DNA from: Candidatus Deferrimicrobium sp.
Lineage (GTDB): Archaea > Asgardarchaeota > Lokiarchaeia > Helarchaeales > HEL-GB-A
Direction of reading: 5' to 3'
NCBI GenBank assembly: GCA_035531115.1
Contig: DATKTP010000172.1
Coordinates: 18,965-82,964, forward strand
DNA length: 64,000 nucleotides
Position numbers and translations under genes: made by a program. The notes below the pieces were generated by a model, which saw only the letters and a list, made by a program, of their open reading frames with translations, ran no database searches and was not told where the DNA came from. Shown here in pieces: positions 16,338 through 34,856 of the stretch. Every line of letters starts with the position of its first letter. Position 1 is the stretch's first letter.

Positions 16338-16812
16338 TTATAATTCTATTTCTCCTGCTCTTTTCAAAATTTCATTGATTAGTTCTTTATCGAGATAATA
16401 ACCCGCAGTTATAAATTTGAGAATGTAATCCTTTATAGAATTGATTAAGCCACTTTTTTTAGCTTTAATAAGAATTCCCAGAGTTCCTTGAATTTTTAAA
16501 TTAAGAGATTTAGCTATTTTACGCCCTTTCTTCTCATCAAGTAAAATTGGAGCTTTCATTTCATTAGCTAGGGTAATTGTTTCGGCTTCCCCTTCATCAA
16601 GTAAATTTATTAGCATTTTTAAAATATCGGACTTTTTAACCTCAACAACTTTTATCCAGTTCGTGTTAACTATCTTCTGCCCCTCAAGATTTTTTCAGTA
16701 ACTCAAGTTGAACCGCTTTAGGTATTATTATTTCTCTATAAAGTTCTTTTAAGAGCCAGAGAAGAGATATCTCATGAAGGACTATAAGGGGGCCTGTATT
16801 CGAAACTTTCAA
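16338..16812 (-). pseudogene. PIN-like DUF3368/COG2405 toxin, frameshifted
   Basis: N-part (frame A) ...LWLLKELYREIIIPKAVQLELLKKS* and C-part (frame B) WIKVVEVKKSDILKMLINLLDEGEAE...GTLGILIKAKKSGLI; frames switch at the T6 run 16690-16695; TTG start overlaps antitoxin stop. Confidence 0.55.
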
Positions 16813-17039
16813 GTCAAATCCTCGAGTTCTTCTCTTAAATCCTCCACATTAATATTGGTAAAAGAAATCTTCATTTTCCCAAGTTCATGAAGGAAATCCC
16901 AAAGTGATATTTCTGCTAGATCCGCCGCTTGTTTTAAGGTGATTTCTCCCTCATTAAATAAATTTGCAGCGACATGAATCTTGACTTTTTTTTCAGAAAT
17001 CTCAGCTGGAACTTTTATAATGATTGTTTTAGTAGTCAT
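16809..17039 (-). CDS. UPF0175-family antitoxin (partner of DUF3368)
   Basis: 76 aa, motif AADLAEISLWDFLHELGK. Confidence 0.55.
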   Translation of the reverse strand: MTTKTIIIKVPAEISEKKVKIHVAANLFNEGEITLKQAADLAEISLWDFLHELGKMKISFTNINVEDLREELEDLT

Positions 17040-17164: not shown

Positions 17165-17713
17165 TTAGAATTTACCTGGTGGAAATTCATTAAAGGATTC
17201 AAAAAACAGCCTTTTGAGGTCATTAAAAATAAGCTCTCTATTTTGAATTGTTAAATTAAATACTCTCACATCATTCCGTTGATATACTTTAGTAACAAAA
17301 GGATGCGTGATTTGCCCAATAGTCCCTAGTACTTTTTGGTAGTTCAAGGCATCCCAGACCGTCTCTTGAAATTCTTCAGAAACTAACTCCATTTTTCCAA
17401 TTTCATCAATTATAATTAACGCTACGTTTTTTTCAATAGATCTTTTTATCCCTAATACTCCAATCCGGTTAAGATCCTCTAACTTTACTCGATAACTTGC
17501 GACTTTTGGACCTTCTTTTTGATTGATATGCGCCAAGATACCTCGTTCGCCAGTCATCATGTCTACAATTTCAAAACCCAATCGACTTCGCTCTCTTATT
17601 TCAGGAGTATAGATACCTCCTAAAGTTTTTCCTTTTCGTTTAAATAGATCAACCAATTTTTGGATTAGGGTGCTTTTTCCGCTCCGGGGCTTCCCTCGTA
17701 TTAGAATATTAAT
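17165..17713 (-). CDS. THEP1-type nucleoside triphosphatase; probable ATT start
   Basis: IGVLGIKRSIE...IIIDEIGKMEL matches THEP1; Walker A (KPRSGKSTLIQK) lies in-frame upstream of the first canonical start (TTG 17656); frame opens at ATT 17713 preceded by AGGAGG. Confidence 0.65.
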   Translation of the reverse strand: MNILIRGKPRSGKSTLIQKLVDLFKRKGKTLGGIYTPEIRERSRLGFEIVDMMTGERGILAHINQKEGPKVASYRVKLEDLNRIGVLGIKRSIEKNVALIIIDEIGKMELVSEEFQETVWDALNYQKVLGTIGQITHPFVTKVYQRNDVRVFNLTIQNRELIFNDLKRLFFESFNEFPPGKF

Positions 17714-17724
17714 TAAGGATCCTC

Positions 17725-17946
17725 CTAACCATATTTCATCTTTAAAACGACATTACAGGTCGGACACTTTTTATTCAAATCAACAGTATACACGGAAAAC
17801 GTTCGCTGGCAGGTTTGACAGATTAGGATCGTTTGGAGAAGTGCCCCACAAGCTGGACATTCTTCGGTCTTTATTTGATCTGATAAAAAAAATTTTTTGC
17901 ATTGATCACAATACTTTTCAAATTGCGGTAATTTAAACGAAGCCAT
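17725..17946 (-). CDS. small zinc-ribbon protein (four CxxC pairs)
   Basis: CDQC...CPAC...CQTC...CPTC. Confidence 0.5.
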   Translation of the reverse strand: MASFKLPQFEKYCDQCKKFFLSDQIKTEECPACGALLQTILICQTCQRTFSVYTVDLNKKCPTCNVVLKMKYG

Positions 17947-32707: not shown

Positions 32708-33406
32708 TTATTTAAGCCATTGAGCTACAATTAAGGCATGATCTTCCGAAAAAGGATCCAGAACTATAACTTCAACGATTTTAAAATTAGCCTTTTTGAG
32801 AATTTCAATCTGTTCTTTATAGACCCGTTGCGGATCCATCGTTACATCGACACTTCGACTTTTAACAAATAAAAGGATCCACCCATTTGATTTCAGAAAC
32901 ATTTCCGCATTTGAGATAATGATTTGTGCTTGTTCAGGTTGCGCTACATCCGCATAAATTATATCAATTTGTTCAGGAATCAACATGCGATATTGATATG
33001 GATATCGAACATCTCCTAAAATGGGGATGAGGTTTGTTCGAATTTCACAGATCTGGACGAGCTCCCTAATTACCCGTGATGAAAATTCAATGCAATATAT
33101 CTTTCCCTGATCCCGCACTATATCCGATAAATGGCTACATGTTGTTCCTGACGCTGCTCCTAAATAGAGGATATGAGAATCTCTAGTAATAGGAATAGTT
33201 TGCAAATGCTTAATTATAGCCGCTGCTATTTTGCTCCGGTTTGGATTCCAGACTCTGTACTCTTTCCCGTCAATCTCCAGCAATTTCTCATCATATGCTT
33301 TGTGTCCAGGTGTGTAATTTAACGTTAATAATGTCTCAGATTCATTTAACTTTTTATACCAAAATGTATTGACTAAACTTTTATGAGCACTAAGTTCTTT
33401 CGTCAT
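32708..33406 (-). CDS. flpA: fibrillarin-like 2'-O-methyltransferase
   Basis: ILYLGAASGTTCSHLSDIV SAM-binding motif, fibrillarin fold. Confidence 0.9.
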   Translation of the reverse strand: MTKELSAHKSLVNTFWYKKLNESETLLTLNYTPGHKAYDEKLLEIDGKEYRVWNPNRSKIAAAIIKHLQTIPITRDSHILYLGAASGTTCSHLSDIVRDQGKIYCIEFSSRVIRELVQICEIRTNLIPILGDVRYPYQYRMLIPEQIDIIYADVAQPEQAQIIISNAEMFLKSNGWILLFVKSRSVDVTMDPQRVYKEQIEILKKANFKIVEVIVLDPFSEDHALIVAQWLK

Positions 33407-33412
33407 AAACCT

Positions 33413-34696
33413 CTATCCTTTATTTTTTTCTGGATTTTTCTTTTTATCCTTCTTGTATTTCTTCCATTTTTTCTTAAACTTCTTTGATTTCTTTTCCTCT
33501 GGTTGTCTTTTCTCCATTAGTTCGGGTCTCTCTTTTTTAGACTTTTTTGGAGGCGTAGGATATTTCTTTTTAATGTCATTAATACGACGATTTAAATCTA
33601 ATAGTATATTATCTCCCATATATTCCCCTGAAAAATAATCTACGCGCGCTGCAATCGAAAGTTTCCCTGCTAATGCACGTGCAATCTTACCTTTGAGCCA
33701 AAAAGATGCGCCATGAATTTCCTCCCATTGAAAAATAATTCCATGTTTTGGAGGTCTCGCACCTGTTCGGAGTGATCTGAAAAGTGCCTTTTCTGCCCCT
33801 AACACCTGAACAGTCGAAGCTGGCATCTTCGCTAAATTTTTCATACCGCCTGCTATACTAATCAGACGCGCGCCTAATAGTGACCCCACAATCGCTCGGA
33901 GATTTGGTGCTACTATTTGCATTGCCTCATCTACATAAGTTGCAAGCTCATCTCGAACACCAAATAAATCATCTGTTACTAATGAGAATTGTCGAAGTGG
34001 AGTAAGTTCAAAATCAGTAATGGATGCACCCATCGACTTTCTTGCCATATCCTCAACTTTTATGGCTTTGTCATGTGCAAATCCAATAACTTTCTCGAGG
34101 TTTTCAGCTTGAAGTTGCGAACGAGATCCAAGTCTTCCAACGATTTTAATAAAAGAAGTGTGGCTCGGAAGACTTTTATCAATTTCAGGAAAGTGTAACC
34201 CGTACCATTCTCGAATTCGCGACGCAAATATATTTAATGTTTTATCACAATCATCAACCGCATTAATTGCTTGCGCAATAAACTGATCCTTTTGTTCCGA
34301 AATGCTTTTAATTTTCTTACGTGTCAAAAGGATATTTATTCGTTGAATATATTGAAATATTTCCTCTTCGGATTTCCAGATATTGAATTCTCGAATAAAG
34401 GAGAGTAATTTCGATCGTAGAACTCTTCCGGCAATGGAAGGCGATTCAATAATGACGGGCTTATCTTTAAGATTTCGGGCTAAATTAACATCTTCTACAA
34501 CGATCTCATCAGCACCTTTTTGTATTACTTCATCAATTATTTCTTCTAATTCTGGAATTACCTTTCCCTTTTGTAACTCTAAAAATTTTTCTACTATGTC
34601 GTCAATTTTTTGTTCAAATAACTTCTTTGCCAGAATTTTATTATCCTGATCTAACCCAAAGATTCCGAATGGCGTTTCAACAATGTATATTCGAAT
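33413..34696 (-). CDS. nop5: C/D box snoRNP protein Nop5 (Nop56/58 homologue) with KKE-type C-terminal tail; probable ATT start
   Basis: NOP5NT (RIYIVETPFGIFGLD...) is in-frame upstream of the first canonical start (TTG 34327); Nop domain GLHFPE...; lysine-rich tail; in-frame TGA at 34706-34708 bounds the ORF. Confidence 0.75.
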   Translation of the reverse strand: MRIYIVETPFGIFGLDQDNKILAKKLFEQKIDDIVEKFLELQKGKVIPELEEIIDEVIQKGADEIVVEDVNLARNLKDKPVIIESPSIAGRVLRSKLLSFIREFNIWKSEEEIFQYIQRINILLTRKKIKSISEQKDQFIAQAINAVDDCDKTLNIFASRIREWYGLHFPEIDKSLPSHTSFIKIVGRLGSRSQLQAENLEKVIGFAHDKAIKVEDMARKSMGASITDFELTPLRQFSLVTDDLFGVRDELATYVDEAMQIVAPNLRAIVGSLLGARLISIAGGMKNLAKMPASTVQVLGAEKALFRSLRTGARPPKHGIIFQWEEIHGASFWLKGKIARALAGKLSIAARVDYFSGEYMGDNILLDLNRRINDIKKKYPTPPKKSKKERPELMEKRQPEEKKSKKFKKKWKKYKKDKKKNPEKNKG

Positions 34697-34856
34697 GTAA
34701 ATCCCTCATTTTTTATTGATTTTATTTCATTCTTATAATGTGGTTCTACAAATCATTCAAAGTAAAGAAAATCTTAGCTTAAAATAAAGTTTTTCTTGGA
34801 TATTTAAAATAATTTATAACTTATTATGTGATTAGTTTTTTGGAGGAAAAAATCCA

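Follow-up and report, generated by a model that had tools for sequence, protein, structure and literature searches.

Where does translation of an essential archaeal gene begin when its conserved N-terminal domain lies ahead of every canonical start codon? The question is raised by nop5, on the minus strand of a 64,000-nt stretch of Helarchaeales DNA (assembly GCA_035531115.1, contig DATKTP010000172.1; hereafter the window), which encodes the archaeal Nop5/aNOP56 scaffold of the C/D box ribonucleoprotein (RNP) and forms an operon with the fibrillarin gene. The comparative evidence presented here indicates that nop5 translation very probably starts at an ATT codon, at positions 34696-34694.

The initial annotation had described the nop5 frame as open from a TGA at 34706-34708 down to 33413, with an N-terminal domain devoid of ATG, GTG and TTG, and had pointed to two ATT codons behind a GAGGGA purine tract. 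A stop-to-stop scan confirmed the open frame and its lack of canonical starts, and both ATT codons and the tract were located on the minus strand as described. The 5' end of the frame reads TGA(34708-34706) GGG ATT(34702-34700) TAC ATT(34696-34694) CGA ATA TAC ATT GTT GAA ACG CCA TTC GGA, and its translated head is stop-G-I-Y-I-R-I-Y-I-V-E-T-P-F-G-I-F-G-L-D-Q-D-N-K, with no further stop from 34705 to the TAG at 33415-33413. The open reading frame (ORF) list and the scan agree that the first in-frame ATG, GTG or TTG is the TTG at 34327, 126 codons past the upstream stop and 123 past the ATT at 34696. These three codons make up 4.5% of in-frame codons in the 58 non-overlapping long ORFs of the window, which sets the probability of 123 codons without any of them at about 0.004. 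Among the gene-like long ORFs of the window, nop5 has by far the longest start-less head, followed by that of a THEP1-type NTPase (32 codons).

The start-less codons carry a recognizable protein domain. The Pfam family Nop5_56-rel_N_Arc (PF21572) matches ORF residues 5-132 (E = 8.4e-19), and the N-terminal domain therefore lies wholly within the start-less part; position 1 of the profile aligns to the residue just after the ATT at 34696. The Nop (snoRNA-binding) domain (PF01798) follows on residues 150-376 (E = 2.6e-66), and matches to Nop5 in the PDB reach E = 5e-96, with the full-length archaeal chains 3id5_A and 5jpq_S aligning from residue 1-2. The fibrillarin ORF starts 6 nt 3' of nop5, and the gene order nop5-fibrillarin-RNase HII is common to all relatives. 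Nei-Gojobori comparison of the 123 codons from ATT 34696 to TTG 34327 between the window and 12 relatives yielded pN values of 0.20-0.30 against pS values of 0.60-0.80, with dN/dS of 0.08-0.30 in the nine comparisons where it was computable and saturated synonymous sites in the other three, a pattern indicating that the region is protein-coding and under purifying selection. Orthologues that dispensed with the N-terminal domain, or encoded it separately, had been named as evidence that would speak against a non-canonical start; in all orthologues the domain was found to be contiguous with the rest of Nop5, and its codons show the selection just described.

To place the start, the nop5 loci of 12 further lineages were fetched and stacked on the conserved ETPFG motif, and 11 of them share the layout of the window. 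In the resulting 12 lineages (the window, L001, L083, L084, L085, L087, L088, L090, L091, L094, L095 and L096), a Shine-Dalgarno (SD)-like octamer is followed by 4 nt, the ATT, one of CGA, AGA or AAA, usually GCx (with ATA in the window and GTA in L090 as exceptions at this third codon) and usually TAT or TTT, so that the motif encoded after the ATT is R/K-A-Y/F-I-V-E-T-P-F-G. The octamer TGAGGGAT is invariant in the seven members of group 1 (the window, L001, L083, L084, L085, L094 and L096), and at the same distance the five members of group 2 follow the pattern TAGGTGA(T/G), with TAGGTGAT in L087, L088, L090 and L095 and TAGGTGAG in L091. The purine tract of the initial annotation can be described more precisely as part of a conserved octamer held at a fixed 4 nt from the ATT.

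The codon at the inferred start is ATT in 11 of the 12 lineages and ATA in L091. A stop codon stands directly 5' of the ATT in six lineages (TAA in L001, L083, L094, L095 and L096; TAG in L090). The window has no in-frame ATG, GTG or TTG between the upstream stop and the conserved N-terminus, an arrangement that takes its strictest form in these six lineages. The next canonical in-frame start lies 30-45 codons downstream in L001, L090, L094, L095 and L096, and L083 has a GTG only 4 codons downstream of the ATT. The sole relative with a canonical start at this place, L093 (ATG GCT CGA GCA...), lacks the octamer. Given how close synonymous sites are to saturation, a typical Ile codon would be expected to drift among ATT, ATC and ATA, which are used at 54, 24 and 22% in the window. 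Such variation is seen at Ile codons 5 and 12 of this alignment; codon 1, by contrast, is ATA once, ATT in the other 11 lineages, and ATC in none.

The position of this ATT is also where other archaea begin Nop5. A scan of genome contigs yielded 2 loci only. A metagenome scan recovered no closer relatives of the clade but provided a background set of 80 distant nop5 loci (identity ≤50%), of which 77 non-redundant loci were used, and in each we read the codon six before the conserved Glu, the place of the Helarchaeota ATT. This codon was ATG in 34 loci, GTG in 21 and TTG in 14 (69/77), and ATT in none of the 77. In seven of the remaining eight, a canonical start is found 4-10 codons ahead of the Glu; the last, L017, has none in range, its ORF running off the contig edge. 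The consensus N-terminus is M/V/L-K-A-T-I-V-E in the distant archaea, against I-R/K-A-Y/F-I-V-E in the Helarchaeota. In the solved structures, residue 2 of S. solfataricus Nop5 (3id5_A) aligns to window residue 1, and residue 3 of 5jpq_S (KIYLIEH) aligns to window Nop5 residue 2 (RIYIVET). Together, the codons of the distant loci and the structural alignment therefore place the ATT at 34696-34694 where other archaea start. The claim of the initial annotation that initiation occurs at a non-canonical ATT behind an SD-like element hence draws support from the comparative DNA of relatives.

The octamer resembles the ribosome-binding sites of its surroundings. GGAGG, GAGGT or GGTGA precedes the ATG of other window genes by a few to about 10 nt (e.g. 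pyrD, pyrK, fibrillarin, both thermosome genes and dnaK), and the octamer-to-ATT spacing falls within the range of their SD spacings. No tRNA or rRNA genes were found in the window, so the anti-SD considered here is the general archaeal one and not the host's own. In archaea the 3' end of 16S rRNA generally reads ...GAUCACCUCC. AGGUGAU constitutes a 7-nt match to this general anti-SD, and UGAGGGAU provides a GAGG core 7 nt before the AUU, so that SD/anti-SD pairing can be predicted for nop5. Nearly the same motif, with the same 4-nt spacer, is present in the P. abyssi aEF1A site employed in studies of archaeal initiation complexes, GGAGGUGAU-UUAA-AUG (PMC6237735): nop5 of L095 reads UAGGUGAU-UUAA-AUU, and the two differ in having AUG and AUU, respectively, as start codon. 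By sequence, nop5 appears to pair a good SD at a good spacing with a weak start codon.

Putative promoter elements are likewise conserved. The box GAAAAACTTTATTTTAAG, which resembles a B recognition element (BRE)/TATA box, occurs at -90 to -92 in L001 and L085 as well, with related boxes in L084, L094 and L096, and three group-2 loci (L088, L090 and L095) carry CTATTTAAAAG at about -57. If these boxes act as promoters, they would imply leaders of ~30-65 nt containing the SD (~60 nt in the window). In L093 the box lies only ~32 nt 5' of the ATG, a geometry consistent with an mRNA that is (nearly) leaderless and hence dependent on a canonical start. The combination of a leaderless-like promoter and an ATG in this lineage suggests that only in the presence of the SD can the weak codon be tolerated. 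At the L093 locus (GCA_048938205.1, 1100-1210) we also noted that the adjacent pyrD/pyrK region is divided among four short ORFs, two of them with DHO_dh or Fe-S-binding matches, which suggests that this region is degraded or poorly assembled.

Under initiation at ATT 34696, the nop5 mRNA would be leadered, as the conserved BRE/TATA-like box ~90 nt upstream suggests; the octamer (UGAGGGAU in the window, UAGGUGAU in sister lineages) would pair with the 16S 3' end and so bring the AUU, which follows it after 4 nt, into the P site; and the AUU would be decoded by initiator Met-tRNA, pairing via the first two bases. The product would begin Met-Arg-Ile-Tyr-Ile-Val-Glu-Thr-Pro-Phe-Gly, with an N-terminus as in other archaeal Nop5, and initiation would presumably be sensitive to aIF1. 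The ATT persists despite near-saturated synonymous sites, although a single T-to-G change gives ATG, and we therefore propose that it is selectively retained, the weak codon probably being kept so that Nop5 synthesis is held down or adjusted against that of fibrillarin, whose gene carries an SD and an AUG of its own.

Several points weigh against this interpretation. AUU initiation is deduced here from the DNA of uncultured organisms, aIF1 discriminates against AUU in S. solfataricus in vitro (PMC4705826, PMC6237735), and archaeal starts are given as AUG, GUG and UUG only in a review (PMC7531240). The 12 lineages are related, and the counts of conserved ATT, not being independent events, should be read as supportive only. 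L087, L088 and L091 have a canonical codon in uninterrupted frame with the ORF, either a GTG within the SD motif or a TTG immediately 5' of the ATT, from which translation could begin in its place, and a GTG or ATG 4-5 codons downstream offers a possible alternative start in L083 and L084. A/T-rich boxes are also present nearer to the ATT, and may give rise to a short-leader or leaderless nop5 transcript.

Initiation might instead take place at a neighboring near-cognate codon, either the upstream ATT at 34702-34700 or the ATA at 34690-34688, both of which are in frame. The former was picked by the NCBI pipeline PGAP (P0241 / HUY00018.1, MYIRIY), and in the window, L084 and L085 no stop interrupts the frame downstream of the TGA that lies within the SD motif. 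The upstream ATT was also one of the two candidates of the initial annotation, of which the comparison retains only the conserved codon at 34696: the homologue of ATT 34702 lies 5' of an in-frame TAA or TAG in six relatives, and in the window it stands only 1 nt past the GAGG core, whereas other window genes have longer SD-to-start spacings. Of the 11 relatives, 10 have GCx where the window has ATA 34690. The canonical starts of other archaea align with 34696, and a start at either of the other two codons appears unlikely. Reading the TGA as a sense codon, under an alternative genetic code, was rejected, the blocking stop being TAA or TAG in six relatives. A one-base sequencing or assembly error could also have displaced a true start at the ATG 34709-34707, which overlaps the TGA 13 nt before ATT 34696 in another frame: deleting one base gives ATG GGG ATT TAC ATT, and a likely homopolymer frameshift exists in another window gene (A6 run, 16690-16695). 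The same out-of-frame ATGAGGGAT followed by 4 nt and ATT, however, is found in five other independent assemblies, with TTGAGGGAT there in L001, and the five group-2 lineages, with TAGGTGA(T/G), have no ATG at all. The Nop5 protein sequence is identical in Logan/ENA, NCBI and JGI records, and the only homopolymer at the nop5 start is a GGG that is invariant across group 1, all of which makes an indel here extremely improbable. Hardly more credible is the product that most gene callers predict, an N-domain-less Nop5 of 304 aa made from TTG 34327, with the upstream frame left untranslated. This TTG is the only canonical start, and the Logan/ENA (P0001) and JGI (P0242) calls use it, but no SD-like motif precedes it in the sequence read there. 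In the C/D RNP structures 3ID5, 2NNW and 3NMU the N-domain is the fibrillarin-binding module; this role, the strong protein-level purifying selection on the 123 upstream codons and their match to the Pfam N-terminal domain and to solved structures from residue 1 all count against a truncated Nop5.

Recoding or structure-based control would provide a different account of the missing start, through a programmed frameshift from a short ORF at ATG 34709 or through a leader kink-turn (k-turn) bound by L7Ae. The nop5-fibrillarin mRNA is under L7Ae/k-turn translational control in Sulfolobus acidocaldarius, where the k-turn bound by L7Ae lies within the first 125 nt, and in Thermococcus kodakarensis (PMC5539422). 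The likeness to Helarchaeota lies in the operon itself, which in those species is the target of translational-level control of C/D RNP protein supply; that control relies on a protein-bound RNA kink-turn, whereas the leader and early coding region of the Helarchaeota yielded neither a conserved structure nor a k-turn. The RNAalifold energy for -60..+66 was -0.73 kcal/mol, and the group-1 leader gave no pairs; twelve single-sequence folds did not exceed shuffles in stability and in many cases fell below them (z up to +1.8). The window had no Rfam match, and the search for a k-turn leader thus produced no consensus structure, stable fold or Rfam match, although no dedicated k-turn motif search was run. 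Such low structure is as expected for an open initiation region. With regard to frameshifting, an ATG or TTG does lie within the octamer in group 1, and two synonymous sites, the third positions of the ETPFG Pro and Phe codons, co-vary weakly with the SD variant, but the overlapping ORF ranges from 10 to more than 22 codons, with no conservation of length, and is absent in group 2, the ATG at 34709 being missing from five lineages. On this evidence, we regard recoding or structural control as very unlikely. In the window, the short out-of-frame ORF extends over 34677-34709 (minus strand) from the ATG in the octamer (TTG in L001) and encodes MRDLHSNIHC; it is longer in relatives. Co-variation from G-C to A-U and from G-C to U-A was observed between alignment columns 57-62 and 94-99 (window 34703-34708 with ~34666-34671), which hints at a long-range pairing that would mask the SD; its predicted energy is negligible, and the two-clade pattern may suffice to generate it.

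Public records reflect the difficulty that a start at ATT 34696 poses to gene callers. At 61-73% identity, the closest Nop5 proteins carry the labels Candidatus Helarchaeota or Promethearchaeota; Odinarchaeia and others follow at ~50%, and the exact 304-aa truncated product is present in public collections (P0001). The 21 public nop5 calls of the clade present six kinds of N-terminus. Nine start 30-55 residues inside the N-terminal domain and lack some or almost all of this fibrillarin-binding module. Another five have M(V)ETPFG or VETPFG at the N-terminus, four have MIEIRAY, MIAIRAY or MSYIKAY, and the remaining three, one each, begin MIRAF, MRVYIID and MARAF. These inconsistent N-termini suggest that the lack of a canonical start characterizes the clade rather than this contig. 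The MIEIR and MSYIK calls use the GTG inside AGGTGAT (L087, L091), the MIRAF call uses a TTG that fills the spacer (L088), and the MVETPFG call in L083 uses an internal GTG. NCBI records adopt non-canonical starts at three positions: an ATC in P0015 (L085), the ATT itself in P0004 (L090) and the ATT at 34702 in HUY00018.1. A single conserved ATT would explain all three. Comparative studies could otherwise wrongly infer the existence of an N-domain-less Nop5 in some Asgard archaea. Proteins identical to those encoded at window positions 33413-34702 and 17165-17734 have been deposited under the bacterial name 'Candidatus Deferrimicrobium sp.' (metagenome-assembled genome, MAG; third-party annotation, TPA), in what is evidently a mis-binned or mislabelled contig of 89 kb.

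The initial annotation had proposed the THEP1-type NTPase as a second instance of ATT initiation in the window, and the sequence bears this out. In the THEP1 ORF (17165-17752, minus strand) the Walker A motif GKPRSGKST precedes the first canonical start, and the 5' sequence, TAG GAGGATCC TTA ATT AAT ATT CTA ATA CGA GGG, places an ATT 7 nt after AGGAGG, from which the translation is (M)NILIRGKPRSGKST. Position 1 of the Pfam NTPase_1 profile aligns to residue 2 of this product. Several THEP1 relatives have MNILIRGKP as their N-terminus, starting exactly at this position; the calls for about eight more are truncated and lack the P-loop. The arrangement recurs in L099 (2915-2931), which reads AGGTGA (with TGA in frame) CGA ACA ATT AGA AGG AAT GAA AAT ATC CTC ATA CGA GGA AAA CCG: no canonical start precedes the P-loop, and the ATT lies 6 nt after the SD and four codons further upstream relative to the P-loop than that of the window. 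ATT starts are therefore not confined to nop5. The THEP1 start codon appears to be evolutionarily labile, with ATG at the window's ATT position in many relatives, whereas the nop5 ATT is conserved. The NCBI THEP1 entry HUY00003.1 (MWLGGSL) is annotated from an ATA seven codons upstream of the ATT proposed here. For both HUY00018.1 and HUY00003.1, the NCBI pipeline already resorts to non-canonical starts, at positions that the comparison does not support.

Two neighboring loci were noted in the course of this analysis. A 73-aa double zinc-ribbon ORF (17725-17946, minus strand) ends in a TAG that overlaps the THEP1 AGGAGG. Downstream of a UPF0175 antitoxin gene (16809-17039), a one-base frameshift in the A6 run at 16690-16695 divides a DUF3368/PIN toxin gene (16338-16812, minus strand) into an ORF of 42 aa and an open frame of 118 codons; a pseudogene, an assembly error or slippage are possible explanations. 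An ATA at 16673, after GAGGGG, was considered as a third non-canonical start and rejected, as it belongs to the 3' half of this split gene.

Table 1. Coordinates of nop5, its probable initiation signals and associated features in the window.
Feature	Position	Strand	Description
Predicted nop5 (aNOP56) coding sequence	33413..34696	(-)	ATT start 34696-34694, TAG stop 33415-33413, 427 codons; based on ORF, Pfam and PDB alignment
Probable AUU initiation codon	34694..34696	(-)	Based on position conserved across lineages
SD-like octamer TGAGGGAT	34701..34708	(-)	GAGG core 34707-34704, 7 nt 5' of ATT; contains the TGA closing the ORF
Upstream ATT	34700..34702	(-)	Start of NCBI HUY00018.1; probably not the true start
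Start-less stretch	34328..34693	(-)	122 codons after the ATT without ATG/GTG/TTG; encodes the fibrillarin-binding N-terminal domain
TTG, first canonical in-frame start	34325..34327	(-)	Head of the 304-aa truncated public calls
BRE/TATA-like box GAAAAACTTTATTTTAAG, putative nop5 promoter	34778..34795	(-)	~90 nt 5' of ATT
Fibrillarin gene	32708..33406	(-)	Own GAGGT and ATG; Pfam PF01269, E = 1.8e-91
Predicted THEP1-type NTPase coding sequence	17165..17713	(-)	ATT 17713-17711, 7 nt after AGGAGG (17726-17721)

Known instances of AUU initiation offer partial parallels. Near-cognate initiation at CUG, ACG or AUU is established in eukaryotes, where it depends on scanning and Kozak context and yields mostly upstream ORFs or N-terminal extensions. 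In contrast to nop5, these eukaryotic sites have no SD and mostly do not represent the sole start of a core gene. Discrimination against AUU is set by the e/aIF1 factor family (PMC4705826). In bacteria, infC (encoding initiation factor IF3) and E. coli pcnB start with AUU behind an SD, and the weak codon limits or regulates their output (PMC4705826). As in nop5, a housekeeping gene keeps AUU over large evolutionary distances while being one mutation away from AUG; these systems differ, however, in being bacterial and in using fMet-tRNA and IF3. The infC product, moreover, itself rejects AUU and thereby closes an autoregulatory loop, whereas Nop5 is not an initiation factor and has no known role in start selection; a link between Nop5 and start-codon stringency through rRNA 2'-O-methylation would be speculation. 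Within the Asgard archaea, a methods remark on the tubulin AtubA from a Kariarchaeaceae MAG describes a likely rare ATT start (Sci Adv 2026, PMC13394414). There too, an upstream ATT restores a conserved element, the first beta-strand, with a likely ribosome-binding site at a plausible distance, but the case concerns a single gene in a single genome and includes no conservation test, stop bracketing or comparison of orthologous starts. Our literature searches returned no description of AUU starts in Helarchaeota or of an AUU start in nop5, and AtubA was the sole Asgard precedent found. A clade-wide conserved AUU as the sole start of a core archaeal gene thus appears to be undescribed.

The initial annotation had gone further and argued for genuine use of AUU as a start codon by this organism. 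This is plausible, and the argument draws on two genes, one further THEP1 lineage and one anecdote from the literature. A broader and rather doubtful proposal is that AUU constitutes a regular fourth start codon in Helarchaeales, and perhaps in the wider Asgard archaea, and that the nop5 AUU might form an infC-like homeostatic loop. AUU behind a strong SD may then serve a few percent of genes (2 of ~58 long ORFs in the window), and the cases at hand may comprise nop5 and THEP1 in the window, THEP1 in a second lineage and AtubA in a Heimdall-related MAG. If this were true, the status of the ribosome or of initiation factors would set the supply of Nop5, the scaffold of rRNA methylation.

That the first gene of the nop5-fibrillarin operon joins a strong SD to a weak codon suggests that output of the C/D RNP scaffold is deliberately throttled. 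In the lineage closest to eukaryotes, where start-codon stringency evolved, a core gene that keeps AUU across a whole Asgard clade would represent a concrete exception to the AUG/GUG/UUG rule.

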